A DNA stretch of 64,000 nucleotides from Escherichia coli (lineage in GTDB: Bacteria; Pseudomonadota; Gammaproteobacteria; Enterobacterales; Enterobacteriaceae), in the NCBI RefSeq assembly GCF_017348835.2, contig NZ_CP071375.1, one strand, 5' to 3'. The notes under the pieces were generated by a model, which saw only the letters and a program-made list of their open reading frames with translations, did not search any database and was not told the origin of the DNA. The position numbers and the translations under genes are program-made. This document shows positions 31,897 through 64,000 of this stretch, one piece after another. Each line of letters begins with the position of its first letter. The first letter of the stretch is position 1.

Positions 31897-33477
31897 ATGA
31901 GTTATTCTGTGATGTTCGCTTTACTCCTGCTCACGCCGCTGCTTTTTTCGCTGCTCTGTTTTGCCTGCCGGAAACGGGGGCACTCTGCGACTCGCGCGGT
32001 GACAGTATTACATAGCTTAGGGATCACACTACTGCTGATTCTGGCACTCTGGGTGGTCCAAACCGCCGCTGATGCGGGAGAAATATTCGCTGCGGGACTG
32101 TGGCTTCATATTGATGGTCTGGGCGGTTTGTTCCTCGCCATTCTTGGTGTGATTGGCTTTCTTACCGGTGTTTACTCGATTGGCTACATGCGTCATGAAG
32201 TGGAGCACGGCGAGCTTTCACCCGTTACGCTGTGCGATTACTACGGTTTCTTCCATCTGTTTTTGTTCACCATGCTGCTGGTTGTTACCAGCAATAACCT
32301 GATTGTGATGTGGGCGGCGATCGAAGCCACCACCTTAAGCTCGGCGTTTCTGGTAGGCATTTACGGTCAGCGTTCATCGCTGGAAGCTGCATGGAAGTAC
32401 ATCATTATTTGTACTGTTGGTGTCGCTTTTGGTCTGTTCGGTACCGTGCTGGTATACGCCAACGCCGCCAGCGTTATGCCGCAGGCAGAAATGGCGATAT
32501 TCTGGAGCGAGGTTCTTAAGCAATCGTCCTTGCTTGATCCAACATTAATGCTGTTGGCCTTTGTGTTTGTGCTAATTGGCTTTGGTACCAAAACCGGGCT
32601 ATTTCCCATGCACGCCTGGCTGCCGGATGCTCACAGTGAAGCGCCGAGTCCGGTCAGCGCCCTACTCTCCGCCGTATTGCTGAACTGCGCGCTGTTGGTG
32701 CTGATTCGCTATTACATCATTATTTGCCAGGCCATCGGCAGCGATTTCCCCAACCGGTTGTTGCTCATCTTCGGCATGTTGTCGATTGCCGTGGCGGCAT
32801 TTTTCATTCTGGTACAGCGGGACATTAAGCGTCTGCTGGCGTACTCCAGCGTGGAGAACATGGGACTGGTCGCGGTGGCGCTAGGCATTGGCGGGCCGCT
32901 GGGAATTTTTGCCGCGCTGCTGCACACCTTAAACCACAGTCTAGCAAAAACGCTGCTGTTCTGCGGTTCCGGCAATGTACTGCTCAAGTACGGCACGCGC
33001 GATCTCAACGTCGTCTGTGGGATGCTCAAAATCATGCCATTTACCGCCGTGCTGTTTGGCGGCGGTGCGCTGGCGCTGGCAGGGATGCCGCCCTTCAACA
33101 TTTTTCTTAGCGAATTTATGACCGTTACCGCCGGACTGGCACGTAATCACCTGCTGATTATCGTCCTGCTGTTATTGCTGTTAACGCTGGTGCTGGCGGG
33201 CCTGGTACGGATGGCTGCGCGGGTGTTAATGGCGAAACCGCCGCAGGCCGTTAACCGGGGTGATCTCGGCTGGTTGACCACCTCGCCAATGGTGATTCTG
33301 CTGGTCATGATGCTGGCGATGGGAACGCATATTCCACAACCTGTCATCAGGATCCTGGCGGGCGCTTCCACTATAGTCCTCTCAGGGACGCACGACCTGC
33401 CTGCACAACGTAGTACCTGGCATGATTTTTTGCCTTCAGGCACCGCATCTGTTTCGGAGAAACACAGTGAACGTTAA
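31897..33477 (+). CDS. hyfF: Hydrogenase-4 component F (NuoN/M-like antiporter subunit)
   Basis: 526-aa membrane ORF in hyf operon order. Confidence 0.93.
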
Positions 33478-35182
33478 TTCATCGTCAAATCGTGGCGAAG
33501 CGATTCTCGCCGCCCTGAAAACGCAGTTCCCCGGCGCGGTGCTGGATGAAGAGCGACAAACGCCTGAACAGGTCACCATTACGGTGAAAATCAATCTGCT
33601 GCCTGACGTTGTGCATTATCTTTATTATCAACATGATGGCTGGCTTCCGGTCCTGTTTGGCAACGACGAGCGGACACTTAACGGTCATTACGCGGTTTAT
33701 TATGCCCTTTCTATGGAAGGGGCCGAAAAATGCTGGATCGTGGTGAAGGCACTGGTCGATGCCGACAGTCGGGAGTTTCCGTCAGTCACACCGCGCGTCC
33801 CTGCCGCGGTCTGGGGCGAGCGAGAAATTCGCGATATGTACGGGCTGATTCCGGTTGGCCTGCCGGATCAGCGTCGCCTGGTGTTGCCCGATGACTGGCC
33901 GGAAGATATGCATCCGCTACGCAAAGATGCGATGGATTATCGACTGCGCCCTGAACCGACGACTGATTCCGAAACGTATCCGTTTATCAATGAGGGCAAC
34001 AGCGATGCGCGGGTGATCCCTGTCGGCCCGCTGCATATCACCTCCGATGAACCGGGTCACTTCCGCTTGTTTGTGGATGGCGAGCAAATTGTCGATGCTG
34101 ATTACCGCCTGTTTTATGTCCATCGCGGCATGGAGAAACTGGCAGAAACGCGGATGGGCTACAACGAAGTGACTTTCTTATCGGACCGCGTGTGTGGGAT
34201 TTGCGGTTTTGCCCACAGTGTGGCCTATACCAACTCGGTTGAAAATGCACTGGGGATTGAGGTGCCGCAACGAGCGCATACCATTCGCTCGATTCTGCTG
34301 GAAGTCGAACGGCTACACAGTCATTTGCTCAACCTTGGCCTCTCCTGCCATTTTGTTGGATTTGATACCGGCTTTATGCAATTTTTCCGCGTGCGGGAAA
34401 AGTCAATGACAATGGCGGAATTGCTGACCGGGTCGCGTAAAACCTACGGTCTGAATCTGATTGGTGGTGTTCGCCGCGATATTCTCAAAGAGCAACGTCT
34501 GCAAACGCTGAAACTGGTGCGCGAGATGCGCGCCGACGTGTCGGAGCTGGTAGAAATGCTGCTTGCCACGCCGAATATGGAACAACGCACTCAGGGCATT
34601 GGCATTCTCGACCGACAAATCGCCCGTGATTATAGCCCTGTAGGGCCGCTGATCCGCGGCAGTGGTTTTGCCCGTGATTTGCGCTTTGATCACCCCTACG
34701 CCGACTACGGCAATATTCCAAAAACACTGTTTACCTTTACTGGCGGCGATGTCTTCTCCCGCGTGATGGTCCGTGTCAAAGAGACGTTTGATTCGCTGGC
34801 AATGCTGGAATTTGCCCTCGACAACATGCCGGATACCCCACTGCTGACCGAAGGCTTTAGCTATAAACCTCACGCATTCGCGCTGGGCTTTGTTGAAGCG
34901 CCACGCGGTGAAGACGTGCACTGGAGCATGCTCGGTGATAACCAAAAATTGTTCCGCTGGCGCTGTCGTGCCGCCACCTACGCCAACTGGCCGGTGCTGC
35001 GTTACATGCTACGCGGCAATACCGTTTCTGACGCACCGCTGATTATCGGTAGCCTTGATCCCTGCTACTCCTGTACCGACCGTGTGACGCTGGTAGATGT
35101 GCGCAAGCGCCAGTCAAAAACCGTGCCGTATAAAGAGATCGAACGCTACGGCATTGATCGTAACCGTTCGCCGCTGAAGTAA
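33467..35182 (+). CDS. hyfG: Hydrogenase-4 large subunit (NiFe; NuoC-NuoD-like fusion), GTG start
   Basis: The track ORF 33422..35182 is placed at a GTG at 33467 preceded by GGAGAA, giving (M)[16 protein letters not shown]... (571 aa). It has N-terminal RVCGICG and C-terminal DPCYSCTDR Ni-binding motifs. The exact start is uncertain. Confidence 0.9.
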
Positions 35183-35191
35183 GGACAGAAG

Positions 35192-35737
35192 ATGCTGAAG
35201 TTACTGAAAACTATTATGCGCGCCGGAACCGCGACGGTGAAATATCCCTTCGCGCCACTGGAGGTCAGCCCAGGCTTTCGCGGGAAACCGGACCTGATGC
35301 CCAGCCAATGTATTGCCTGCGGTGCCTGCGCCTGTGCTTGTCCGGCAAATGCGCTGACTATCCAGACCGACGACCAGCAAAATTCGCGCACCTGGCAGCT
35401 CTATCTGGGGCGTTGTATTTACTGCGGACGTTGTGAAGAAGTGTGCCCGACCAGAGCCATTCAGCTTACCGATAACTTTGAACTGACCGTCACCAATAAA
35501 GCCGATCTCTATACCCGCGCGACGTTCCATCTACAACGTTGCAACCGTTGCGAACGCCCGTTTGCCCCGCAAAAAACCGTCGCACTGGCTGCTGAATTGT
35601 TGGCACAGCAACAAAATGCGCCACAAAACCGCGAAATGTTGCGGGCGCAAGCGAGCGTCTGCCCGGAGTGCAAACAACGCGCGACGCTGATCAACGACGA
35701 TACAGATGTACCGCTGGTGGCTAAGGAGCAGCTATGA
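35192..35737 (+). CDS. hyfH: Hydrogenase-4 component H (2x4Fe-4S ferredoxin, NuoI-like)
   Basis: 181-aa ORF with [12 protein letters not shown] and [12 protein letters not shown] motifs. Confidence 0.94.
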
Positions 35738-36927: not shown

Positions 36928-38939
36928 ATGGCTATGTCAGACGAGGCGATGTTTGCCCCGCCGCAAGGAATAACAATTGAAGCGGTAAACGGAATGCTCG
37001 CGGAGCGGTTAGCACAGAAACACAGCAAGGCGTCTTTATTACGCGCCTTCATCCCGCTGCCGCCGCCGTTCAGCCCGGTACAACTTATTGAGCTGCATGT
37101 TCTCAAAAGCAACTTCTATTACCGCTACCATGATGATGGCAGCGATGTGACGGCAACAACAGAGTATCAGGGCGAGATGGTCGATGATTCGCGCCACGCC
37201 GTCCTTCTCGGCAGTAGTGGAATGGCGGAGCTACGCTTTATTCGTACCCACGGCAGCCGTTTTACTCCCCAGGATTGCACACTGTTTAACTGGCTGGCGC
37301 GGATAATCACCCCGGTTCTGCAATCATGGCTCAATGATGAAGAACAGCAGGTGGCGCTGCGTTTGCTGGAGAAAGATCGCGATCATCATCGGGTACTGGT
37401 TGATATTACTAATGCAGTGCTGTCACATCTTGATCTCGACGATCTGATCGCTGACGTCGCCCGTGAGATCCATCATTTTTTCGGTCTGGCTTCAGTCAGT
37501 ATGGTACTGGGAGATCATCGAAAGAACGATAAGTTCAGCCTGTGGTGCAGCGATCTTTCTGCCTCACATTGTGCGTGTCTGCCACGCAATATGCCTGGCG
37601 ACAGTGTATTGCTGACACAAACGCTACAAACCCGACAACCGACCTTGACGCACCGTGCAGACGATCTGTTTCTCTGGCAACGCGACCCGTTATTACACTT
37701 ACTTGCATCTAACGGCTGCGAATCTGCGCTCCTGATACCGCTTACCTTTGGCAACCATACACCGGGTGCATTGTTGCTGGCGCATACCTCTTCCACTCTC
37801 TTTAGTGAGGAAAACTGCCAGCTACTACAACACATAGCCGATCGCATCGCTATTGCCGTTGGCAATGCCGATGCCTGGCGTAGCATGACCGATTTGCAGG
37901 AAAGTTTGCAGCAAGAAAACCACCAGCTTAGCGAGCAGCTCCTTTCGAATCTGGGCGTCGGTGACATTATCTATCAAAGCCAGGCAATGGAAGACCTGCT
38001 CCAGCAGGTAGATATTGTGGCGAAGAGCGACAGTACGGTGTTGATTTGTGGTGAAACCGGAACCGGCAAAGAGGTGATCGCCAGAGCGATCCATCAACTT
38101 AGCCCGCGACGCGACAAGCCGCTGGTCAAAATCAACTGCGCTGCCATCCCCGCCAGTCTTCTGGAAAGTGAGTTATTCGGTCATGACAAAGGGGCGTTTA
38201 CTGGTGCGATTAATACCCATCGTGGTCGTTTTGAAATTGCCGATGGCGGCACGTTGTTTCTCGATGAAATTGGCGATCTGCCGTTAGAACTTCAGCCTAA
38301 ATTGCTGCGCGTATTGCAGGAGCGGGAAATTGAGCGTCTCGGCGGGAGTAGAACGATCCCGGTGAATGTCAGAGTCATTGCCGCCACCAACCGTGATTTG
38401 TGGCAAATGGTTGAAGATCGCCAGTTTCGCAGCGATCTCTTTTATCGCCTGAATGTCTTCCCACTGGAATTGCCGCCGCTACGCGACCGTCCGGAAGATA
38501 TCCCTCTTTTAGCAAAACATTTCACGCAAAAAATGGCGCGCCATATGAATCGCGCAATTGACGCCATCCCGACCGAGGCACTACGCCAGTTGATGTCGTG
38601 GGATTGGCCGGGCAACGTGCGCGAGCTGGAAAACGTGATTGAGCGGGCGGTACTGTTGACTCGTGGTAACAGTCTGAATTTACATCTAAATGTCCGACAA
38701 AGCCGTTTACTGCCGACGCTAAATGAAGATTCAGCGCTTCGCAGTTCAATGGCGCAGTTGCTGCACCCGACGACGCCAGAGAATGACGAAGAAGAACGTC
38801 AGCGCATTGTTCAGGTATTGCGAGAAACCAATGGCATTGTTGCGGGCCCCGTGGCGCGGCGACACGATTAGGGATGAAGCGCACCACGCTGCTGTCACGA
38901 ATGCAGCGTCTGGGGATCTCGGTTCGCGAGGTGTTGTAA
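36928..38939 (+). pseudogene. hyfR: hyfR, sigma54-dependent activator (GAF + AAA+), frameshifted before the C-terminal HTH
   Basis: The main frame (MAMSDEAMFAPPQG... with GETGTGKE Walker A and GAFTGA motifs) ends ...NGIVAGPVARRHD* at 38871. The -1 frame reads GPRGAATRLGMKRTTLLSRMQRLGISVREVL* ending at 38939. The frames join at the C-run 38847-38850. Confidence 0.85.
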
Positions 38940-54316: not shown

Positions 54317-54508
54317 GTGAGTCAGGCAACCAGTATGCGAAAACGACACCGATTTAACAGTCGCATGACCCGTATCGTACTGCTCATCAGCTTTATCTTC
54401 TTCTTTGGCCGTTTTATCTACTCGTCCGTCGGTGCCTGGCAGCACCATCAGAGCAAAAAAGAAGCTCAGCAATCCACACTCTCCGTCGAATCACCGGTAC
54501 AACGTTAG
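54317..54508 (+). CDS. yfgG: Small membrane protein YfgG
   Basis: 63-aa ORF (MSQATSMRKRHRFNSRMTRIVLLISFIFFFGRF...) divergent from pdeF as in K-12. Confidence 0.8.
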   Translation: MSQATSMRKRHRFNSRMTRIVLLISFIFFFGRFIYSSVGAWQHHQSKKEAQQSTLSVESPVQR

Positions 54509-54601
54509 CGGTTACCTTCTCCACTTTCACAGAACATAACGGCACTTTGAACCGCCCCGGAAATCCTGGAGACTAAACTCCCTGAGAAAGAGGTAAACAG
54601 G

Positions 54602-54928
54602 ATGACTAAAAATACTCGTTTTTCCCCCGAAGTCCGTCAGCGGGCGATTCGTATGGTTCTGGAAAGTCAGGATGAATATGACTCACAGTGGGCGGCAATT
54701 TGTTCCATTGCCCCAAAGATTGGCTGTACGCCGGAGACTCTGCGTGTCTGGGTTCGCCAGCATGAGCGGGATACCGGGAGTGGTGATGGTGGACTCACCA
54801 CCGCTGAACGTCAGCGTCTGAAAGAGCTGGAACGTGAAAATCGTGAACTGCGCCGCAGTAACGATATCCTTCGCCAGGCTTCCGCTTATTTTGCGAAGGC
54901 GGAGTTCGACCGCCTCTGGAAAAAATAA
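54602..54928 (+). CDS. IS3-family transposase OrfA (HTH/leucine-zipper)
   Basis: 108-aa [26 protein letters not shown]... ending at an A6 run followed by TAA. Confidence 0.95.
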
Positions 54929-55815
54929 TGCCACTGCTGGATAAGCTGCGTGAGCAGTACGGGGTCGGACCGGTATGCAGCGAACTGCATATTGCCCCGT
55001 CAACGTATTACCATTGTCAGCAACAGCGACATCATCCGGATAAACGCAGTGCCCGTGCGCAGCACGATGACTGGCTGAAGAAAGAGATACAGCGCGTATA
55101 CGATGAAAATCACCAGGTATACGGTGTGCGTAAAGTCTGGCGTCAGTTGTTACGGGAAGGTATCAGAGTGGCCAGATGCACTGTGGCACGTCTCATGGCA
55201 GTTATGGGACTTGCCGGTGTTCTCCGGGGTAAAAAGGTCCGCACTACCGTCAGCCGGAAAGCCGTTGCCGCATGCGACCGCGTAAACCGTCAGTTCGTGG
55301 CAGAACGTCCAGACCAGTTGTGGGTGGCTGATTTTACCTGGGTAAGCACATGGCAGGGCTTCGTTTATGTGGCGTTCATCATTGATGTGTTCGCCGGATA
55401 CATCGTGGGATGGCAGGTCTCATCATCCATGGAAACAACATTCGTGCTGGATGCACTGGAGCAGGCGTTGTGGGCCCGTCGGCCGTCCGGCACAATCCAT
55501 CACAGTGATAAAGGTTCTCAGTATGTATCGCTGGCCTACACGCAGCGGCTTAAGGAAGCCGGATTACTGGCATCAACAGGGAGTACTGGCGACTCGTATG
55601 ACAACGCGATGGCTGAGAGCATCAATGGTCTTTACAAAGCGGAGGTAATACACCGTAAGAGCTGGAAAAACCGGACAGAAGTGGAACTGGCCACACTAAC
55701 GTGGGTGGACTGGTATAACAATCGACGATTGCTGGAAAGGCTGGGCCATATTCCTCCGGCAGAAGCAGAAAAAGCTTATTATGCTTCCATCGGAAATAAT
55801 GATCTGGCAGCCTGA
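54928..55815 (+). CDS. IS3-family transposase OrfB (DDE catalytic domain), in the -1 frame relative to OrfA
   Basis: 295-aa ORF with DDE residues in WVADFT, HHSDKGSQY and NAMAESIN. The -1 frame is open from 54862, so an OrfAB fusion by programmed frameshifting at the A6 run is possible. Confidence 0.95.
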   Translation: MPLLDKLREQYGVGPVCSELHIAPSTYYHCQQQRHHPDKRSARAQHDDWLKKEIQRVYDENHQVYGVRKVWRQLLREGIRVARCTVARLMAVMGLAGVLRGKKVRTTVSRKAVAACDRVNRQFVAERPDQLWVADFTWVSTWQGFVYVAFIIDVFAGYIVGWQVSSSMETTFVLDALEQALWARRPSGTIHHSDKGSQYVSLAYTQRLKEAGLLASTGSTGDSYDNAMAESINGLYKAEVIHRKSWKNRTEVELATLTWVDWYNNRRLLERLGHIPPAEAEKAYYASIGNNDLAA

Positions 55816-55857
55816 GTTCACAGATAAAACACTCTCCAGGAAACCCGGGGCGGTTCA

Positions 55858-55964
55858 AACTCGTACAGTGGCGTACCACTGGGGTCCATTCCTTCAAGTC
55901 TCAGGGAAGCCTCTGCTTTGCGGAAGCCCTCAATGCGTAACCGTGTATAGGGAGTCCTAGACAT
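55858..55964 (-). pseudogene. 5' fragment (35 codons) of a VbhA-like (Fic-associated) antitoxin gene, cut by the IS
   Basis: The reverse strand reads AAGGAAAAAC ATG TCT AGG ... = MSRTPYTRLRIEGFRKAEASLRLEGMDPSGTPLYE, running straight into the IS right end. The A.ASLRLEG..PS motif is typical of VbhA-family antitoxins. Confidence 0.55.
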
Positions 55965-56045
55965 GTTTTTCCTTTGAGTTGCAGGAGTGAGGTTCGCTCA
56001 GTGAAAGCGTCAGCTCACGCAACCTCGTTAACTGACGCGCGTGAT

Positions 56046-57446
56046 TCAAGATTTATTATTACCCGATAAGCTATCACCGGCAAAATCATCATGTTCGCGG
56101 TTATCCCGACGAGTAGCTGTTTGTTTACTTATCTGAGTCGCCAACTCCTCTCCAATAGTTTGTTGGGCACGAGAAGAACTGCTACTTCGCTTCATTCTCT
56201 GGTACTCAGCAGCTCCGTTAGCCATGCTGCTTCCCATATGGCTTGCCATGCGGCCAGCACGCGAGAATGAAGCAAACCCCTGACTTCCTCCACTGGCGCT
56301 ACCTGAACTGCTCCCTGCAGACGAACCACTGTAACCGCCTGAGGTTTGGCCTCCAGAAGTATCTACAGAACCGGTATCTTCCCCGCCGCCAAATCCTCCA
56401 CCGGAACCGCCTCCGCTGCCTGAACCAGATTCTTCGTCCATGGCAGCTTGCGCAGACTCGAATGCTGCCTTTAATGCTGAAGCTCCGCCGCTGACTTGAG
56501 CTGATGCCCCCATTGCCATTGCTCCAGCACCGCTGATGGCAGTAGCGGCTGCGCCGGTAATCATACCCGCCCCAAATCCACCAATCCCTTGTAAAGAAGC
56601 CCCTCCTACAACACCTGATAACAACAGTGGTAGCTTATTAGTTAATACTAACAGGATAATTGACGCCAGAAGCAAAACTATAAGACTATTAAGATCAGGA
56701 ACATCATCTTTAATAAGAGAAAAATATTGATCTATAAATGATTGTCCAATCCCAATAATTAATGTCATCGTGAATAATTGAATGCCAATCGATAAAACAG
56801 TTCGTAAGTAATTAATTGCTATATCAGAGGTCCATTTCGAACCACCAAACCCAAGCAATATAACTCCTGCATAACATAACACCCATGCAGAAACCAACAT
56901 GATTAGCATATTTATCGCTATAAGGGACATCACTACCAAAACGATTATCGCGACTGTTATCATAATGGTGGATATCATTGGCGACCAAATTGATGCGGCT
57001 GAACTGATCTTGGTTAATATCGCAAACGCCATATCAACTATGCTTGAGGGAGAAATACCAATACTTATTTCTAAAGCGTTTGCTGCAAGTTGTCTCATTG
57101 AATTAATTATGGATTGCGATATGGATGGACCGTTGATTAAAAGATAATAAAAAAAACCAATGACGGCAAAAAAGCGAACTATTTCAGCAAGTACCCCTGT
57201 CAACCCTTCCCCTTGCATCGCCATCATACCAAATGTCCAAACCATACTTATTAATACCAGCCCCCAGAAGAGCCAATTTGCATAGTCAGCAATTACTGCT
57301 GTCCATGTACTGGCTACTTGTTGAAACTTATCTAATAAAGTATCAAGTAGCCCGCTACTATCTAATTGACCAGCATAGGCATTAATAGAAAAGAAAAGTA
57401 TGATACCTAAAAAGGTGAGCTTACTTACTATTTTCATGATTACCAT
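56046..57446 (-). CDS. trbL: TrbL/VirB6-family type IV secretion membrane protein with a Gly/Ser-rich C-terminal tail
   Basis: 466-aa ORF with a signal peptide, multiple TM segments and trbJ-trbK-trbL synteny. The low-complexity tail reads GSGSGGGSGGGFGGGEDTGS.... Confidence 0.8.
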   Translation of the reverse strand: MVIMKIVSKLTFLGIILFFSINAYAGQLDSSGLLDTLLDKFQQVASTWTAVIADYANWLFWGLVLISMVWTFGMMAMQGEGLTGVLAEIVRFFAVIGFFYYLLINGPSISQSIINSMRQLAANALEISIGISPSSIVDMAFAILTKISSAASIWSPMISTIMITVAIIVLVVMSLIAINMLIMLVSAWVLCYAGVILLGFGGSKWTSDIAINYLRTVLSIGIQLFTMTLIIGIGQSFIDQYFSLIKDDVPDLNSLIVLLLASIILLVLTNKLPLLLSGVVGGASLQGIGGFGAGMITGAAATAISGAGAMAMGASAQVSGGASALKAAFESAQAAMDEESGSGSGGGSGGGFGGGEDTGSVDTSGGQTSGGYSGSSAGSSSGSASGGSQGFASFSRAGRMASHMGSSMANGAAEYQRMKRSSSSSRAQQTIGEELATQISKQTATRRDNREHDDFAGDSLSGNNKS

Positions 57447-57613
57447 TCTCGTTTAGGGCTTGGTTTATTATTACTCCGTAGAGCACATTTATCGTATTTA
57501 TGTTCATCAAATTTATTATCTGGCATCGATAAACAATCTTTATCATTTTTATCGCAAGAACATATGGCCAATAAACTGATCAGAATAAATACAATCAAAA
57601 AATTATCTTTCAT
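57440..57613 (-). CDS. Small lipoprotein in the TrbK (entry-exclusion) position
   Basis: The track ORF 57440..57631 is trimmed to an ATG at 57613 preceded by GGTGAGGAA, giving MKDNFLIVFILISLLAICSCDKND... with a signal peptide plus Cys. The TrbK assignment is positional only, because I see no sequence similarity to RP4 TrbK. Confidence 0.55.
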   Translation of the reverse strand: MKDNFLIVFILISLLAICSCDKNDKDCLSMPDNKFDEHKYDKCALRSNNKPSPKREW

Positions 57614-57624
57614 TCTGCGTTTCC

Positions 57625-58419
57625 TCACCAAATTCGCTTCGGGCTTGGTGTATTCTCTCCAGCTAACGCTTTTTCATCAGCGGCTATCTGTTGTGATTCT
57701 TTATCTGCCTGAGCCTGTGCCAGTGTTGCTGCAGCGTTTTGTTGGGCTACCAGAAGTGAGCGGATTTGCAGTAACTGATTTGTCTGTGCACTGGCAAGCT
57801 GGTTTGCCGCCTGAATAGCTTCCATTTGCCCTTGTGCGCCGCTTGCCTGAGTTTGTAATTCGGCAAGATTATCAGCATCGCTCTGCAGGGTGTTCTGCTG
57901 CTCGTCAATTACCTTAAATACTGCGTCATTGGCCTTTTTACGCGCCCCTGAGCTATTCTGTTCAGCTTCACGCAGTGCACTAATTTCAGACGCGGTACAT
58001 TCAACATTGCTGTTAAAGCAAGACGATGTCCTGTAGTAGTTAACATCCTGATAGCGTTTCAGGTACGCATCGAGACTCCCGGCCTGATTCTTGTAGTAAT
58101 TAAGGGTATCCTGCACCTGCAACAATTTATTAATTGTTGAATTTGCCTGGTCCCAGATATAGGCCGCAGGAGCTACGGTGTTCTGCAGCATGTTTTCATA
58201 CTGCTGCAGCTGCGTCTGGTACTGCTGGATTTGTTTAGTCACAGCCTGAACGTTGTTAACTGCGCTGATTGTGGTCTGAACCACATTAGTGCCATCAATA
58301 ACGGGAATTCCGGCCTTCACCGGTAATGCCATGACGGACGCCACGAAAGGAACTATTAAAGCTTTTTTAGCGGCTAAAATCCCTCTTTGTGATGAAACCA
58401 CTCGGAACTTTAAATTCAT
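57625..58419 (-). CDS. trbJ: TrbJ/VirB5-family type IV secretion protein
   Basis: 264-aa ORF with a strong RBS (AAGAGGTGA), a signal peptide and the coiled-coil-rich Q/N-rich sequence typical of P-type TrbJ. Confidence 0.8.
   Translation of the reverse strand: MNLKFRVVSSQRGILAAKKALIVPFVASVMALPVKAGIPVIDGTNVVQTTISAVNNVQAVTKQIQQYQTQLQQYENMLQNTVAPAAYIWDQANSTINKLLQVQDTLNYYKNQAGSLDAYLKRYQDVNYYRTSSCFNSNVECTASEISALREAEQNSSGARKKANDAVFKVIDEQQNTLQSDADNLAELQTQASGAQGQMEAIQAANQLASAQTNQLLQIRSLLVAQQNAAATLAQAQADKESQQIAADEKALAGENTPSPKRIW
58366..58378. promoter_or_regulatory. KorB-operator-like palindrome TTTAGCGGCTAAA inside the 5' end of trbJ
   Basis: An exact 13-mer matching the IncP O_B consensus TTTAGCSGCTAAA lies 41-53 nt downstream of the trbJ ATG. 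Confidence 0.6.
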
Positions 58420-58462
58420 TTGCTCACCTCTTTTTCAACAGATTAGTAATATTTAACACTCT

Positions 58463-58476
58463 GTCTGTTAACAGAC
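58463..58476. promoter_or_regulatory. Perfect 14-bp palindrome GTCTGTTAACAGAC between traJ-like and trbJ (candidate operator or promoter-overlapping site)
   Basis: Read directly. It lies 44-57 nt upstream of the trbJ ATG and contains a TTAACA -35-like hexamer. Confidence 0.3.
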
Positions 58477-58499
58477 GCAGGTATATAGGAAACCACACA

Positions 58500-58853
58500 T
58501 TATTTATCCAAGATTTTATCCATAATGTTCCTTAGTTCTTGCCGAGTTGATTCTATTTTCGCAAGCAAGGTTCTTATCAGTGTGGGTGAAAAATCAACTG
58601 TTCGAGGATCATTTGCGAGCCATAATTTAAGTAATCCGCCAAGTCTTCCAAGATCAGCATTTACTCGGCTAAGTTCATTAACCTGTTTTATATCTACGAT
58701 AGAATCAACCTGATAACCCATTGCAACTCTACGAACAAAACAGGCAACACTTAATCCAGATGCTTCTGCATTTTCTTGGATGAGAATTTTTTCTTCGGGT
58801 AAACAATAAACTTTTATTGGCGTACTATTTTTTCTAGTCTGAGTAACTTTCAT
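58500..58853 (-). CDS. traJ: TraJ-like oriT-binding relaxosome accessory protein (IncP TraJ / MobC-type RHH)
   Basis: The track ORF 58500..58865 is placed at an ATG at 58853 preceded by GGAGAG. TPIKVYCLPEEK...VNADLGRLGGLLKLWLANDPRT...LLAKIE is colinear with RP4 TraJ as I recall it (PPIKVYCLPDER...INGDLGRLGGLLKLWLTDDPRT...LLAKIE). Confidence 0.85.
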   Translation of the reverse strand: MKVTQTRKNSTPIKVYCLPEEKILIQENAEASGLSVACFVRRVAMGYQVDSIVDIKQVNELSRVNADLGRLGGLLKLWLANDPRTVDFSPTLIRTLLAKIESTRQELRNIMDKILDK

Positions 58854-58868
58854 ATAGCTCTCCATACA

Positions 58869-58984
58869 GGCGGTAGCCTGGCAGCCTCGCAGAGCAGGAC
58901 GCCCTTGAGCCGCGATGCGGCGAATAGGGAGTGGTAAAGTTGGAACACCGTAGCGGTGGGCCCACTTTACATGTCCTGCCCTGC
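58869..58984 (+). other. IncP-type origin of transfer (oriT); predicted nick between 58978 and 58979 on the + strand
   Basis: The sequence is colinear with the RP4/RK2 oriT as I recall it. It shares an identical 18-mer CAGCCTCGCAGAGCAGGA (58882-58899), GCGAATAGGGA, GGAACACC, the hairpin CACCG-TAG-CGGTG, GGTGGGCC and the nick core GTCCTG/CCC (RP4 ATCCTG/CCC). Its position upstream of traJ is the same as in RP4. Confidence 0.8.
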
Positions 58985-59246
58985 AGTTGCCGTTGTATAT
59001 CTGTGCACGACAATGTGTATTTCAGTGTACAGGATGTGTTTTCTTAGCGTATTAATATAGGATTACTGGAGTAAATTTCTGCAGCAAATGTGTTTTTTGC
59101 AAGGAAACTATATTTCTCCCTTTTGAAAATGACCTTTAGTAGTTATAAATGGACGTCCACCAACTGTATTTATGTTTCGATATATTGTAAGAAGTCTTTC
59201 ATTTTCCGATGCACTTTTTTACTTACCTTGTCAGAGCATGTGCATT

Positions 59247-59271
59247 GCAGATTTTAGCGGCTAAAATCTGC
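59247..59271. promoter_or_regulatory. KorB-operator-like site embedded in a 25-bp perfect palindrome GCAGATTTTAGC-G-GCTAAAATCTGC
   Basis: Read directly. The core TTTAGCGGCTAAA is at 59253-59265, in the non-coding region between oriT and the iterons. Confidence 0.65.
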
Positions 59272-59397
59272 CTCCCTATGCCTAAAGCTAGGGGCGTACC
59301 TCATATGTCATAAAATCTACCTCAAGTGTCAATATACCAAACGTGTAAGTAATCTCTTCTTCTGGCGTACAACCATCGGTCTTTGGCCGATTCTAGA

Positions 59398-59431
59398 TTT
59401 GAAAGCGCCTGCTCAGGCAGGTGATTTCAAA
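59398..59431. other. Imperfect 15-bp inverted repeat (hairpin) next to the iterons; candidate oriV structural element
   Basis: TTTGAAAGCGCCTGC-tcag-GCAGGTGATTTCAAA has 13 of 15 positions complementary. Confidence 0.35.
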
Positions 59432-59481
59432 GCCTGAATATACTGGTTGATCCTGAATAACCTGCAAAGGAGTTAAAAAAT

Positions 59482-59565
59482 CAGGCCTCTGTAGCACACT
59501 GGCGGGCCGTTACAGCACATCACCGGGCCGTAACGACACGTTACCGGGCCGTTGTAGCTCGTTTT
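59482..59565 (+). repeat. Iterons: three good and one degenerate 21-bp direct repeats (candidate IncQ-type oriV)
   Basis: The units start at 59503, 59524 and 59545: CGGGCCGTTACAGCACATCAC, CGGGCCGTAACGACACGTTAC, CGGGCCGTTGTAGCTCGTTTT, with exact 21-bp periodicity. A degenerate unit at 59482 matches 12 of 21. The last unit overlaps the repC-like stop codon. Confidence 0.7.
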
Positions 59566-60314
59566 ATCCTAGAATTTTGTATCTCAATGCCAATCGCTAG
59601 AAATTGTTTGCTATCTTCTTTTAATCTCCGCCGATAGTTACGTAATGTCATATTATTGGTACCTTCACCACTGACAGCTAAAATTAATGTATCAATATGC
59701 CAGCCGCCTTTAGGATCGTGCTTATGTGTTAATATATGACGTGCAACTGCTTGGCTAATACCATGCTGGAGACGAGCAATAGGACCTGGATCATGATGAA
59801 AATGCAAATCTCGCTTCAACAACATTACCAATGCAACACCCAAGCGTACTCTCCATAGGTTACGTTCACCACCAGTTAGAGGATTACGCCTAGTCATTGG
59901 TGAGGGTACGACATGGTCAATTAAACCGCCTAGAATGCAATAACCGTTTTTTTCTAAATCTGGCGTTACTATTTCAACAGTTGCCACACGTAGATCAACG
60001 AGTAGTTTTTTAATTCGATCATAACTGTATTGTGCATCGGATAGAGTTCGGCGTACTTTCGCTGGATCTACTAATAACTCGATTCCTCCATCAGAAATTT
60101 CTCGACGTTTCTCGGCCACATAGAGCATTGTTTCCACAATATCCGCATGACGTTGTCCTAGTCTTCCGGTAACTCGACAACGACCAAAACTAGTCTCCAT
60201 CCACTGCCCCTTCAGCGCCAAGGGACGTTGACTTGGTTGGTACAGAATGACTCTAGCCTGCAGAGCTGTGCTAGTAGGTGTAACTTTATTACCAGTTATC
60301 ATTTTCTGCACCAC
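59541..60314 (-). CDS. repC: IncQ RepC-like iteron-binding replication initiator
   Basis: 257-aa ORF directly downstream of the repA-like gene. The C-terminal half (...HILTHKHDPKGGWHIDTLILAVSG...RNYRRRLKED...) aligns by eye with RSF1010 RepC (...RLCGWIDPGKTGKASIDTLCGYVW...RKRRQRVREA...). The start is either GTG 60314 or ATG 60302. Confidence 0.7.
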   Translation of the reverse strand: MVQKMITGNKVTPTSTALQARVILYQPSQRPLALKGQWMETSFGRCRVTGRLGQRHADIVETMLYVAEKRREISDGGIELLVDPAKVRRTLSDAQYSYDRIKKLLVDLRVATVEIVTPDLEKNGYCILGGLIDHVVPSPMTRRNPLTGGERNLWRVRLGVALVMLLKRDLHFHHDPGPIARLQHGISQAVARHILTHKHDPKGGWHIDTLILAVSGEGTNNMTLRNYRRRLKEDSKQFLAIGIEIQNSRIKRATTAR

Positions 60315-60330
60315 TCAATGAAGACATACA

Positions 60331-61146
60331 TTATTTTGCTATTTGTTTTTTATTCTTCGATTTGAGTTGCGTTATCCTTAATACTCCTCCCTCATGTCTC
60401 TGTAACCAACGTTCTGGCGTACGTTCTCCATAATTTGCTTTATTTATTCCAAATCTAACAAATTGACCTCGAACATCATCAGAAATATCATACGTCTTCG
60501 CTTCTAAGGCGGTCATGCCCGCCAGATAAGATTGCCACCGTATATTATCAACCAGGACGCTACTACCCCTGCTTGCCTGCTGTATATCACCAACTCCCAT
60601 CGTGGCAGAGCCTTTGTTTGAATGGTGTAGAAATATAATCGAACACCCTGTATCAGCAGCAATACCTTCTAGCTTTCCAATGACTTTGGACATTGCTCCG
60701 CTATTATTTTCATCTTCCTGGTGGAAACGGCGAAGAGTATCCAAAATTATTAACCGTCTACTTTTTGAAATCTCATTAATCAAGTTGCTCCAACCTGGCG
60801 AGAAAATATTTGGACACTTCCCTACCAAAGGTTCGACAAGTAGCTTATCAGCAACAATCTGCTGCTGACGTGCTGTTAGATATTTTCCCAAAGCATATAG
60901 ACGATGGTGAATGATGGTTGCAGAGTCCTCCACAGGTAAATATGCCACTAACCCCGTTGGATATTCACCAAAGTTTAAAAGATCTACACCACAAGTAATC
61001 TGCACAGCCAGTTGCAATGCCAGCATTGACTTTCCAACGCCTCCCGGAGAAACAATCGCTCCGATAGTACCAATAGCCAAATTAGGCAAGACGTAATCAA
61101 TTGGTTGCGGCTTAGCTTCAAATGCTTCCATTATGTTCAATGACAT
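60331..61146 (-). CDS. repA: IncQ RepA-like hexameric replicative helicase (RecA/AAA fold)
   Basis: 271-aa ORF. IDYVLPNLAIGTIGAIVSPGGVGKSMLALQLA...LDTLRRFH...IAADTGCSIIFLHH..KG...QQASRGSSVLVDNIRWQSYL is near-colinear with RSF1010 RepA as I recall it. Walker A and B motifs are present. Confidence 0.85.
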   Translation of the reverse strand: MSLNIMEAFEAKPQPIDYVLPNLAIGTIGAIVSPGGVGKSMLALQLAVQITCGVDLLNFGEYPTGLVAYLPVEDSATIIHHRLYALGKYLTARQQQIVADKLLVEPLVGKCPNIFSPGWSNLINEISKSRRLIILDTLRRFHQEDENNSGAMSKVIGKLEGIAADTGCSIIFLHHSNKGSATMGVGDIQQASRGSSVLVDNIRWQSYLAGMTALEAKTYDISDDVRGQFVRFGINKANYGERTPERWLQRHEGGVLRITQLKSKNKKQIAK

Positions 61147-61151
61147 TGCTG

Positions 61152-61382
61152 TTACCTACCTAAAACAATACCGGGTCTGGCTGCTTTAAACATTGCTGAT
61201 TTACGATCCGCAATCCACTGTTCCACTTCGGATAACTGCCATGCAACATTTCGGCTCGTAAGTGCTATACGGCGAGGAAACTCGCCTCGCTGTTCAAGGT
61301 TATAAATAGTGCGGGCTGACAATGGGATCATTTCCAGAAGTGTTTTTCTGTTAATGAGCGTGCTATGTGCCTTTGTTTGCAT
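61152..61382 (-). CDS. alpA: AlpA-family (MerR-type HTH_17) regulator/excisionase
   Basis: The track ORF 61152..61403 is placed at an ATG at 61382 preceded by GGAGGAAGG, giving MQTKAHSTLINRKTLLEMIPLSARTIYNLEQRGEFPRRI.... This is the typical AlpA/Xis motif, located 5 nt upstream of repA. Confidence 0.8.
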   Translation of the reverse strand: MQTKAHSTLINRKTLLEMIPLSARTIYNLEQRGEFPRRIALTSRNVAWQLSEVEQWIADRKSAMFKAARPGIVLGR

Positions 61383-61459
61383 CTGCCTTCCTCCTGTTTC
61401 CAATCAGGCCTATACAATGCCAAGCATTACCACTTGCTAAAACCTATTCATTGGCTAAA

Positions 61460-62431
61460 ATGGTTGACATGAAAATTACTATCTGGGAAGGCTGTGACCT
61501 CACAGTTGCAGCTGCAATTAAATTATTTGTAGAGCGTAGTTCTCCGTACTCCATATTTTCACGGAGGTATCCAATACTGCGTCTCATACAGGAAGTTATT
61601 GATCCAGCAGTAGCTGATTATGTAAATTCCCTGCCACCAAGTCATAAAGACTACATTTCTGGAGTAAATCTAGGATTTAGTGAAGTACTTAAAAAATTGG
61701 GTTTAAACGTCGTAGTACAGGCACAAAGACTTCTTTTGCGTAATTTCGTTCTGACTTTAGATCAACAAACTTCTCTTGATAAATGCTTTACCGCTACGAT
61801 TGAGTCTCTTATTGAATTAGTCAGTGAATGCGCATCCAAGCGGCCGAAGAAATCCTCTCCTGCAAAAGGAGTAACTATAAATTCACAGCGTAAGCTCGGT
61901 TATTGCGAGTTCTGCGGTAATCTAACCGAATTTTCCAAGTTGATCAGTGAGATATCAGAATTTGTTGCTAACGATAATGAGTTCCCCGTTCATGAAAAAC
62001 AGGTCCTTAGTCATCGATATTGTTCTGACCATAGGCCCAAACTCACCAATGGTCTATGGAATCCCAAATACAGACAAGGAAAGCGGTCTCTCGAACAGTT
62101 CAATAAAGAATTAATAAGGCTTAGACGGCAATGCGCTAAACCTCATAAAGCTAACGCAAACACAGGGGATATATTGATTGATACATATTTTCATGAGTGG
62201 ATGCAGGGTCAAACTTTAACCCCAGCAGATCTAGATAAACTTAGGAATATCGCCAGACGAATGGTTGACTCCAAATTCACTGATACTAAGAAAAAAATAA
62301 TCATATTAAAACACCAAGGTTTTAACCAGTTTGAAACCGCACAGGTTTTAGAAAAAAATCACTACACAACTATGACAAAGCAGGCTGTGTCCAAGGCCTT
62401 AGCGTCTGTGAGGAAAGAATTTTATATTTAA
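61460..62431 (+). CDS. Hypothetical protein with a CxxC...CxxH motif and a C-terminal HTH-like (sigma70 region 4/LuxR-like) segment; divergent from alpA
   Basis: The long track ORF 61367..62431 has its first 31 codons overlapping alpA, so I place the start at 61460 or 61469. No good RBS is visible and the start is uncertain. Motifs are GYCEFCG...YCSDH and ...ILKHQGFNQFETAQVLEKNHYTTMTKQAVSKALASVRKEF. Confidence 0.55.
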   Translation: MVDMKITIWEGCDLTVAAAIKLFVERSSPYSIFSRRYPILRLIQEVIDPAVADYVNSLPPSHKDYISGVNLGFSEVLKKLGLNVVVQAQRLLLRNFVLTLDQQTSLDKCFTATIESLIELVSECASKRPKKSSPAKGVTINSQRKLGYCEFCGNLTEFSKLISEISEFVANDNEFPVHEKQVLSHRYCSDHRPKLTNGLWNPKYRQGKRSLEQFNKELIRLRRQCAKPHKANANTGDILIDTYFHEWMQGQTLTPADLDKLRNIARRMVDSKFTDTKKKIIILKHQGFNQFETAQVLEKNHYTTMTKQAVSKALASVRKEFYI

Positions 62432-62853
62432 AATAGTATATCCACGAGCTATTATGGTGGCAGTTTAAGTCTTAATACCATCCACTTTATTGAATTATAA
62501 CCAGCCACTTACGAAGGTTTTTCGCGATTACCCTGCTTCAAATTGATGATTTTGAAAATACAGTATTATAGTTTATTGTTTGTAGCGCAGCTGTAAGCGT
62601 TATGCAAAATGGATCACAGTGATACGACCTCACCAGTAAATCACTGAAGCCGATCTGTAATGACATAGAACGAATTGGTTTTATGGTTATGCAATGGCTC
62701 ATCCCCTTACTTGTCCCTGACCATAAAAAGCATTCGCTTTCCTGAAAGCAAGTCTAAGCCAAGGGGCGTTTACAGTTGTCTTATCTTGACTCATTAGGTA
62801 CTGGCTTAATGATTAGAATCATGTCGGTGGCATTTAGGTCCAAATATGCCCAA

Positions 62854-62872
62854 AATTTTAGCAGCTAAAATT
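62854..62872. promoter_or_regulatory. KorB-operator-like palindrome, variant centre (AATTTTAGC-A-GCTAAAATT)
   Basis: A 9-1-9 perfect palindrome is read directly with core TTTAGCAGCTAAA at 62857-62869, in a non-coding gap. Confidence 0.55.
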
Positions 62873-63008
62873 CGTCTTCTCATGTAGGGTCAAGAAGCTT
62901 ATGACTAAACCTATTGATTATGTGAATTACCTTGTGAGTAATACTCGTAGGATGGAATCTTCCAAAACTCTGACAATTCACTCTGAATGCATGGTAACAA
63001 AGAACAGT

Positions 63009-63638
63009 TTAAACCATGGTCTGTTCAGCGTTAAATTTCTCAAGATAGACTTCCATTTCGCGAGTCCACCTAGGGGTAGGTACCGAGGTGATCATTAGCC
63101 AAGGAAACCACCATACAAGCATGAAGAGTAACATAAGCGGTGCGATCATTTCGGCCGAAGAATGAGAAACTATATACATAATGAATAATATTAGTAGAAC
63201 TGTGTTTACAATCTGACCTACCAGAAAAAGACGCCAGCGAAAACAATGCCATTTCCTGTTGAACACAATCCGTCCATCCCGTTCTTCGAGCCAGTTACGC
63301 CACGGCTTGAGATAACCAGCCCGCAACCCATAACGATCACACATTATTACAGCCAAATCCTGCAGCCGATAATTATACAAGCCTGTGAGCCGATAAAGGC
63401 TGCGCTGACGAAGCTCACGCTTTGCCAGACGGACCGCATTTTTATTCAAATATGGCTGTGTCAGCATTTGCTCTAGCCGGCGCTTCCTAAGATTGAGTAG
63501 TCCACGAAATACACTTCCAGATTCAGCATTAATTACTCTGTGACGAACTACACCGAGTGCAATATAGATACACAGCAATAGCCAGCCGGTCTTAGGGTAT
63601 TGATTCATCCATTGTATAATTACAGACAACTCAGGCAC
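63009..63638 (-). CDS. Hypothetical membrane protein (one N-terminal and two C-terminal TM helices, basic central domain), GTG start
   Basis: 209-aa track ORF with hydrophobic segments TGWLLLCIYIALGVV, LFLVGQIVNTVLLILFIMYIV and MIAPLMLLFMLVWWFPWLMI. I recognise no family. Confidence 0.6.
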   Translation of the reverse strand: MPELSVIIQWMNQYPKTGWLLLCIYIALGVVRHRVINAESGSVFRGLLNLRKRRLEQMLTQPYLNKNAVRLAKRELRQRSLYRLTGLYNYRLQDLAVIMCDRYGLRAGYLKPWRNWLEERDGRIVFNRKWHCFRWRLFLVGQIVNTVLLILFIMYIVSHSSAEMIAPLMLLFMLVWWFPWLMITSVPTPRWTREMEVYLEKFNAEQTMV

Positions 63639-63689
63639 TTTTATTTTTCCTTTTTATGCAATCCAGATAAAACCAGTAAAGATTCAGTA

Positions 63690-63708
63690 AATTTTAGCGG
63701 CTAAAATT
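63690..63708. promoter_or_regulatory. KorB-operator-like palindrome AATTTTAGC-G-GCTAAAATT upstream of the membrane-protein gene
   Basis: A 9-1-9 perfect palindrome has its core TTTAGCGGCTAAA at 63693-63705. It lies 52-70 nt upstream of the GTG at 63638 and 54 nt downstream of the int stop. Confidence 0.65.
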
Positions 63709-63761
63709 GCTCTCCTGGCGTAGAAAAAAGAAGCACACCAACTTAACTTACTGATTATTAA

Positions 63762-64000
63762 CTACTTACTAGTCCATTCATCAATCATATTCGCCCAATC
63801 TTGTAGCATCTCAGCCCTCTGCTCACGATATTCTGCCTTGTTATAAACAGCTCGTACCCCTTTTTGTTCATGGGCAAGGCTCTTCTCAATCCAGTCAGTA
63901 TTGTACCCGGCCTCATGTAGCAAGGTGCTGGCTGTACGCCGTAAGTCATGGGGACCAAACTTAGGCAACAACTCCCCTTCTTTCTGAGCCAGGCGATACG
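63762..64000 (-). CDS. int: Tyrosine recombinase (P4-type integrase), C-terminal about 79 codons; the 5' part lies right of the window
   Basis: The frame is open to the window edge. It reads ...YRLAQKEGELLPKFGPHDLRRTASTLLHEAGYNTDWIEKSLAHEQKGVRAVYNKAEY..., containing the HxLRxT box, LAH and the catalytic-Tyr region. Confidence 0.85.
   Translation of the reverse strand, partial: YRLAQKEGELLPKFGPHDLRRTASTLLHEAGYNTDWIEKSLAHEQKGVRAVYNKAEYREQRAEMLQDWANMIDEWTSK

Follow-up and report, generated by a model that had tools for sequence, protein, structure and literature searches.

An IS629-like element beside the scar of a probable 8.8-kb adjacent deletion in Escherichia coli PE164

Introduction

In O157:H7 Escherichia coli, the insertion sequences IS629 and IS1203 are 1,310 bp long, with inverted-repeat tips, a -1 frameshift between orfA and orfB, an ALIL pseudoknot and a high copy number in each genome. 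Deletions next to the IS are common in these bacteria, and so are copies that lack a matching duplication (PMC3271280, PMC9943667). The element described here, from strain PE164, resembles them in all these respects. It differs from IS629 of O157:H7 in its sequence, which is 94.1% identical to a copy of strain Sakai, and in its host, a porcine O108:H9 hybrid of aEPEC and ExPEC. Also in contrast to O157:H7, no iee gene was matched on the PE164 chromosome or annotated on its plasmid, pPE164.

Several families of elements are associated with deletions of neighboring DNA. Replicative deletions by elements of the IS26, IS1 and Tn3 type keep the IS, lose DNA on one side, leave no duplication and bring a new flank directly against the IS tip, all of which applies to PE164. 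Their chemistry is replicative and of the cointegrate type, for which deletions are canonical, whereas the IS3 family transposes by copy-out-paste-in. Hence, the route taken here must differ from theirs. Among IS3-family elements, IS150 was reportedly associated with deletions of the rbs operon in the Lenski long-term lines, for which Cooper et al. are said to have proposed, in the Journal of Bacteriology in 2001, a second insertion followed by IS-IS recombination. A resident IS3-family copy reportedly forms the fixed end of those deletions and the distal end is variable, which is akin to what we observe; the IS and the locus are different, and the deletions were parallel and selected there, whereas a single event is seen here. 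Adjacent deletions that retain the IS have also been reported for the IS3 family by Kanai et al. (2022), the endpoints sharing 6 bp of homology at most (PMC8860574). They extend outwards from one inverted repeat, keep the IS in some of the products and have no significant endpoint homology, as in PE164. They were obtained on a plasmid, with induced transposase, and span hundreds of bp, whereas the event in PE164 is natural, chromosomal and 8.8 kb long.

The locus also belongs to an island of a described type. PIME/GIsul2-like elements at guaA share a core set made of int, an alpA-like gene, luxR, repA, traJ, trbJ and trbL (bioRxiv 10.64898/2026.01.12.698999; PMC9376610). The island analyzed here is like them in this core set, in its integration at the 3' end of guaA (accompanied, in the related strain F2_81, by a 15-bp direct repeat) and in having an accessory defence region that adjoins the transfer module. 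It is unlike them in that PE164 has lost the accessory region and attL, which leaves a fixed remnant, and in that the PE164 island is devoid of sul2/ISCR2 and of resistance genes.

Results

Sequences compared

The window, i.e., the whole stretch of 64,000 nucleotides of E. coli DNA under analysis, holds a region that the chromosome of PE164 (NZ_CP114128.1) matches end to end, including the junction between yfgG and the IS. The window and the RefSeq record of PE164 have six differences in 30,101 bases, and at four of these six positions the window agrees with F2_81. Judging from these sequences, the window is the PE164 version of the region or that of a near-identical sister, and two slightly different sequences share the junction. 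PE164 was obtained from a piglet and is a hybrid of aEPEC and ExPEC with serotype O108:H9; its closed hybrid Unicycler assembly comprises one chromosome and one plasmid of 41.7 kb (PMC12233904). Insertion sequences go unmentioned in the paper describing that genome (PMC12233904). The relative used throughout is F2_81, isolated from a pig in Australia. Its flanks, compared over 20.6 kb to the left and 9.9 kb to the right, are 99.96% identical to those of PE164, and the two strains have a frameshift in hyfR in common. Counts among complete genomes refer to a sample of 5,426 complete E. coli genomes, and the comparisons with PE164 rest on assembled sequence records.

The IS629-like element and its junctions

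The window carries an intact element with TG...CA ends (Table 1), which we read directly from the sequence as starting with TGAACCGCCCCGG and finishing with CCGGGGCGGTTCA. It has the traits of the IS3 family (IS629/IS1203 group): orfA and orfB overlap at a -1 frameshift signal, and the RefSeq annotation of PE164 gives a joined OrfAB with programmed frameshift; OrfA has an HTH domain and OrfB an rve DDE domain; the inverted repeats are imperfect, with TG...CA tips and TGAACCGCCCCGG at both ends. The alignment to the Sakai copy covers 1,310 bp without gaps, and its identity falls below the 95% line for isoforms. IS629 subtypes diverge by 4-5% from one another (PMC3271280). The observed identity is consistent with this divergence, and on the sequence "IS629-like" seems a fair label.

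Table 1. Features of the window around the junction between yfgG and the IS629-like element
Feature	Position	Strand	Basis
yfgG (63 aa), last chromosomal gene before the breakpoint	54317-54508	+	ORF list; YfgG family protein in PE164 annotation
Native yfgG 3' flank, 39 bp, ending in ...GGCACTT	54509-54547		Identical to F2_81 L002:23671-23709
IS629-like element of the IS3 family, intact, 1,310 bp	54548-55857	+	Sequence, domains, other copies
Left terminal inverted repeat (IRL), begins with 5'-TG	54548-54572	+	22 of 25 positions match IRR
orfA, 108 aa, HTH_Tnp_1	54602-54928	+	Pfam PF01527, E=2.9e-12
ALIL frameshift-stimulating pseudoknot	54883-54999	+	Rfam RF01497, 120.3 bits (gathering score 50)
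orfB, 295 aa, HTH_21 (PF13276) and rve DDE (PF00665), -1 frame relative to orfA	54928-55815	+	rve E=1.5e-26
Right terminal inverted repeat (IRR), CA-3' end on + strand	55833-55857	-	Comparison with IRL
Remnant of 144-aa HigA-family antitoxin gene, first 35 codons and 2 nt	55858-55964	-	Intact homologues; HigA domain in the missing part
Surviving guaA-proximal arm of PIME/GIsul2-like integrative mobilizable island, without attL	55858-64000, continuing past the window end to guaA		RefSeq PE164 annotation, Pfam
trbL	56046-57437	-	RefSeq annotation; Pfam TrbL
trbJ	57625-58419	-	RefSeq annotation
traJ	58500-58853	-	RefSeq annotation; Pfam NikA-like
Hypothetical gene	59541-60302	-	RefSeq annotation
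repA-type helicase	60331-61146	-	RefSeq annotation; Pfam AAA_25
alpA-like HTH	61152-61382	-	RefSeq annotation; Pfam Phage_AlpA
luxR	61460-62431	+	RefSeq annotation
Hypothetical gene	63009-63638	-	RefSeq annotation
Integrase	from 63762	-	RefSeq annotation; Pfam Phage_integrase

The copy in the window is one base off three others (both copies of F2_81 and one on pPE164), and the PE164 chromosome matches the element at around 31 further places. IS629-like copies number around 33. From its intactness, its closeness to these copies and the number of further chromosomal copies, we judge that the element is active. A single-base, synonymous difference at position 1151 of the IS separates the window from the RefSeq record of PE164, and for this reason the position is uninformative as a marker of recombination.

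The IS lies 39 bp from the yfgG stop, and its 3-bp flanks, CTT on the left (54545-54547) and AAC on the right (55858-55860), do not match. A target duplication of 3-4 bp is thus missing at this copy. Perfect duplications of this length are present at the five sibling copies that we checked (TTT, GTT, (A)TAC, TGG, and (G)CCC), all with TG...CA ends. The missing duplication at the window copy is explained if a deletion joined the flanks of two different loci, as argued below. When both ends of the IS are shifted outwards by 1 bp, to TTGAACC...GGTTCAA, the flanks become ACT and ACT. To the right, an ORF on the minus strand starting at 55964 keeps 35 native codons (to 55860), its codon 36 straddles the end of the IS, and the resulting chimeric ORF of 48 aa (55818-55964) continues into the element. 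The preliminary description of this DNA had given the same TG...CA termini, 39-bp gap, unmatched CTT and AAC, shifted ACT pair and abutment at codon 35, all of which we recovered by reading the sequence and the ORF list. A scan for promoters and terminators between 54200 and 56200 gave nothing that exceeds the shuffled expectation.

An 8.8-kb segment is missing from PE164

In F2_81, the genes to the left of the IS are, in order, yfgG, yfgH, yfgI, a DprA-like gene, a RecQ-like gene, a DUF2326 gene, two ABC-3C genes, and the truncated HigA gene. To its right come trbL, trbJ, traJ, a hypothetical gene, repA, the HTH gene, luxR, a second hypothetical gene, int, and guaA. The right junction of the IS is identical to that of the window (GGTTCA followed directly by AACTCGTAC). 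On the left, F2_81 has 8,813 bp more than PE164, in one contiguous segment between GGCACTT and the IS (L002:23710-32522): its alignment to PE164 stops at L002:23709 and picks up again at the IS. The native flank of yfgG in F2_81 reads ...GGCACTT/CGCTG (GGCACTTCGCTG), continuing past L002:23709 with CGCTGTCGG and running on into yfgH. In the window the breakpoint is at 54547/54548. The size of the deletion carries an ambiguity of 1 bp, because a T precedes the IS in F2_81 too, and the last T before the breakpoint may be either this one or the chromosomal one. The ambiguity would also allow for a break that lies 1 nt beyond the tip of the IS and so lacks the precision of a transposase.

The left junction, between yfgG and the IS, was found only in PE164, i.e., in one of the 5,426 complete genomes, and the right junction, IS followed by AACTCG, only in PE164 and F2_81 in the same sample. 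The deleted segment, which includes yfgH and yfgI, has some match in 5,424 of these genomes, and on this ground we take the order yfgG-yfgH-yfgI to be ancestral. We found no match to it in the PE164 chromosome and none across the plasmid collection, and pPE164 carries none of it. A chimeric query that combined an anchor with yfgH and yfgI had one place in PE164 (the anchor only) against two in every control strain. Hence, the segment was lost, not moved. IS-IS recombination that inverted or translocated the segment and left reciprocal flanks is ruled out, since neither the chromosome nor the plasmid of PE164 retains any of the 8.8 kb; the event being a deletion and not an inversion, no reciprocal pair of flanks is possible.

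In summary, one endpoint lies at the TG tip of the IS (within 1 bp), the IS and the flank on its other side are the same as in F2_81, there is no duplication, and the missing DNA, contiguous in F2_81, is absent from the rest of the PE164 genome. Such a pattern is characteristic of adjacent deletions mediated by an IS, and from these comparisons we consider it very probable that an IS-associated adjacent deletion left the junction between yfgG and the IS as its scar. The preliminary description had inferred an IS-mediated deletion, or recombination between two copies, with loss of part of the island and of the genes that follow yfgG, and had proposed a comparison with a relative that carries the island together with yfgH and yfgI. 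F2_81 is such a relative, and the 8,813 bp that it holds and PE164 lacks support this inference.

The insertion into the antitoxin gene is older than the deletion

The gene cut by the right end of the IS has intact homologues of 144 aa in five E. coli and eight other Enterobacterales genomes. An intact homologue matches HigA (TIGR02607) with 63.5 bits, against a cut-off of 47.7, at residues 66-136, and this part is deleted in the window. The ORF had been described as VbhA-like. There is indeed a weak resemblance at the N-terminus, but the N-terminal 66 aa of the intact homologue reach only 12.1 bits (E=0.2) with the Pfam profile of VbhA (PF18495), below its cut-off of 25.9 bits, and the 48-aa ORF of the window had no VbhA match when searched against Pfam. 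We thus rejected a VbhA identity: what remains encodes the N-terminus of a protein of 144 aa with a HigA C-terminal half, i.e., of a HigA-family antitoxin.

At least seven draft or metagenome contigs also encode the chimeric ORF of 48 aa across the right junction, and the three that we inspected each end in or just before the IS. Since the right junction is common to F2_81 and to at least seven contigs, the IS entered the antitoxin gene earlier, and this insertion is the more widespread event in the lineage. The junction with yfgG is a later event, confined to PE164. Hence, the early observation that the IS cuts a reverse-strand gene stands, but the cut predates the event that created the junction with yfgG.

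The intact homologues also reveal the target of this primary insertion. They read ...GGACTCG... (TTAAYGGACTCGTA), which became GGA-T-(IS)-A-ACTCG, i.e., an imperfect 3-bp duplication, GAt/aAC, of GAC. The added length is 1,310 + 3 bp, which fits a 3-bp duplication of GAC. The adjoining base has been replaced at each tip of the IS, a C by a T on the left and a G by an A on the right, making the inverted repeat longer by 1 bp, and the AAC of the right flank does not form one half of a clean duplication. The imperfection is unremarkable in itself, since matching duplications flank only 21 of the 47 IS629 sites of O157 genomes (PMC3271280). An allele of the island gene with three extra bases (GGATAACTCG) would make the primary insertion duplication-free. 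A pattern scan of contigs allowing a gap of 0-4 nt found only GGACTCG in homologous genes; the gapped matches were unrelated sequences, and this allele was ruled out. One might also suppose that the T and A at the tips are not accidental, one nucleotide of the circle-junction spacer (A-N-T) of the donor having been retained per 5' end in gap repair. On the sequence alone we regard this as very improbable. If it were true, the window copy may act as a unit of 1,312 bp, the PE164 junction GGCACT-T-IS would have formed at the extended end, and a non-canonical end-processing step in IS3-family integration would have been recorded.

How the deletion may have arisen

The comparison with F2_81 indicates a succession of two events. 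In an ancestor common to both strains, an IS629-like element inserted into the gene of the 144-aa HigA-family antitoxin, beside trbL. The line leading to PE164 then lost the 8,813 bp between the left terminus of the IS and the point 39 bp downstream of yfgG, which fused the 3' flank of yfgG directly to the IRL and left the IS and its right flank untouched. Two routes may account for the second event. A second copy could have inserted into the CTT site, in the same orientation, before homologous recombination took place between the two copies. Or else the cleaved 3'-OH of the IRL could have undergone an aberrant intramolecular strand transfer to a distant site, with resolution by replication. 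Either way, CTT and AAC come from two different loci, and no duplication is expected. The two routes have identical products and are inseparable by sequence.

We slightly prefer recombination between two copies, giving it roughly an even chance, as it is the orthodox route for an IS that transposes by copy-out-paste-in, a process known to regenerate the donor (bioRxiv 10.1101/2023.06.07.543989). The junction predicted for its two-copy intermediate, the right end of the IS followed by CTTCGCTG, occurs in none of the 5,426 complete E. coli genomes. This leaves the route without direct support and is still compatible with a transient intermediate.

The same result favors a deletion in one step, catalyzed by the transposase, in which the 3'-OH of the resident IRL would attack the same strand 8.8 kb away in place of the partner end, and replication would give a deleted chromosome with the IS. 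The breakpoint exactly at the canonical TG tip also speaks for it, and IS3 transposase was seen to produce IS-retaining adjacent deletions in no more than a day, whether IEE was present or not (PMC8860574). Canonical copy-out-paste-in, by regenerating the donor, requires an extra resolution step for such an outcome (bioRxiv 10.1101/2023.06.07.543989), and the product is indistinguishable from that of the two-step route. All in all, we regard a one-step deletion as a serious contender whose chances are somewhat below even.

Copies that are within one base of each other are classic collapse points, and an assembler may have collapsed two IS copies flanking the 8.8-kb segment. We find such an artefact very unlikely, given that the assembly is a closed hybrid one made with Unicycler, with one chromosome and one plasmid (PMC12233904), that the segment is in no PE164 record, and that the window and the RefSeq record, with their six differences in 30.1 kb, both carry the junction. 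The chance is slimmer still that the IS-excision enhancer, together with a break made by the transposase at the IS end, led to microhomology-mediated end joining. The one base (T) of possible microhomology at the junction would suit this process, but the iee gene of Sakai (ECs_1305) was unmatched on the chromosomes of PE164 and F2_81 (megablast with a chimeric query of anchor and iee, of which only the anchor matched, at one place in each), no iee-like gene is annotated on pPE164, the sole plasmid, and IEE events typically remove the IS, which is intact here.

This leaves the ACT triplets. The one on the left is native sequence of the yfgG flank and the one on the right native sequence of the island gene, and in F2_81 they are separated by 8.8 kb, with the IS between them. 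Since they are native to two loci at such a distance, the match is coincidental, and we attribute it to chance on the basis of these sequences. A junction between the yfgG flank and the short ORF might have existed beforehand and received a 1,312-bp unit (TTGAACC...GGTTCAA) that duplicated 3 bp, ACT. Such a simple insertion would account for ACT on both sides after the 1-bp shift. It has a negligible probability, and we consider it refuted by the sequences of the flank and of the island gene: the native flank (GGCACTTCGCTG) runs into yfgH in F2_81 and in essentially all E. coli, the ACT on the right is part of the GGACTCG that the intact island gene has in 13 genomes, the two ACT sites are 8.8 kb apart in a relative with the same IS, and the sibling copies show TG...CA ends with clean duplications. 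The uninterrupted junction with a single ACT, which the preliminary description had named as the arrangement that relatives would show in this case, is not what they have: the flank of yfgG continues to yfgH, and the island gene reads GGACTCG.

Consequences for the island at guaA

All the genes of the PIME/GIsul2-like core set (int, the alpA-like gene, luxR, repA, traJ, trbJ, and trbL) are present according to the annotation and Pfam. F2_81 has two copies of a 15-bp direct att repeat (AAATCATTCCCACTC), one located between yfgI and the DprA-like gene, the other in the 3' end of guaA. PE164 no longer has this pair, the copy on the side of yfgI being inside the deleted segment; the copy on the side of guaA stays, outside the window. 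The deletion removed yfgH, yfgI, attL, PsyrTA, the DUF2326/ABC-3C module, and the 3' 109 codons of the antitoxin gene. In the deleted cargo, PsyrA was identified with E=1.6e-136 and PsyrT with E=6.6e-278, and a PDC-M68B-like DUF2326 protein is encoded together with the ABC-3C genes. As attL is lost, the remnant of the island would, judging from its sequence, no longer be able to excise by recombination between attL and attR.

Discussion

The deletion in PE164 is an ordinary, strain-specific case of the well-known genome decay driven by insertion sequences. It bears on no open mechanistic question, and its consequences are local to the strain. These consequences are nevertheless concrete: PE164 is a natural double knockout of yfgH and yfgI, the two anti-phage defence modules of the island, PsyrTA and DUF2326/ABC-3C, are gone, and a mobilizable island has been turned into a fixed remnant without attL. 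The junction between yfgG and the IS could serve as a marker of the lineage. More generally, the locus provides a clean, dated example of a proliferating IS629-like element, with around 33 copies, eroding both core genes and the cargo of a mobile element in a porcine aEPEC/ExPEC hybrid lineage.

Recurrent IS insertion around yfgG and the island

The neighbourhood of yfgG and the island is a repeated target of IS insertion. IS629-like elements have inserted independently in the adjoining genes pdeF (in F2_81) and yfgI (in CE10 and IAI39), and strain WS3294A has another IS3-family insertion, within the island cargo. Two further copies of the window's IS are found on pPE164, the sole plasmid of PE164. 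The copy within IS2 is flanked by a GTT duplication and the copy in umuC by (A)TAC. Six positions distinguish the latter from the window copy, which means that at least two sequence variants of the IS are present together in the strain.

The duplication at the primary insertion, in the antitoxin gene, is imperfect. The intact target reads GGACTCG and became GGA-T-[IS]-A-ACTCG upon insertion; hence, in the expected GAC/GAC repeat, the base next to the IS is altered on either side, and this lengthens the inverted repeat by 1 bp. Five sibling IS copies are surrounded by clean duplications of 3-4 bp.

Features of the window and of the compared loci (L001, PE164 chromosomal locus; L002, same region in F2_81; L003, CE10 locus; L029, pPE164)
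Feature	Position	Remark
hyfR	window about 36928-38939; L001:3029-5040	annotated as frameshifted in PE164 and F2_81
IS copies of pPE164	L029:21024-22333 and 32182-33491	one within an IS2 copy, one in umuC
IS629-like insertion in pdeF, F2_81	L002:20003-21312	TTT duplication
IS629-like insertion in yfgI, CE10/IAI39	L003:7821-9130 (CE10)	(G)CCC duplication
Primary insertion, antitoxin gene	window 55857/55858; L002:32520-32523 / 33832-33836	imperfect duplication
Differences, window vs RefSeq PE164	window 35577-35578, 46003, 52606, 52908, 55698
Accessory region	L002:25285-31880	absent from window by deletion; PsyrTA pair and DUF2326/ABC-3C module

Comparison with the PE164 record

Over 30,101 bases, there are 6 differences between the window and the PE164 record in RefSeq, and at four of these the window has the F2_81 base. 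One of the four, 52908, lies in pdeF, where codon 353 is TGG in the window and TAG, an internal stop, in RefSeq; pdeF, annotated as a pseudogene in the latter, is thus intact in the window (747 aa). The hyfR pseudogene common to PE164 and F2_81 supports the close relationship of these strains.

Cargo of the island

In F2_81, the PsyrTA pair of the accessory region consists of DprA-like and RecQ-like genes, and the DUF2326/ABC-3C module is a match to PDC-M68, a PADLOC candidate. The cargo at this position varies between strains; others have DUF262 pairs, UvrD/ATP-dependent endonuclease genes, or PP2C/vWA genes there. The accessory region of the human isolate 2018-11-1BCC (NZ_AP027902.1) contains mcr-1.1, which places this colistin-resistance gene on the chromosome, inside a mobilizable island integrated at guaA.
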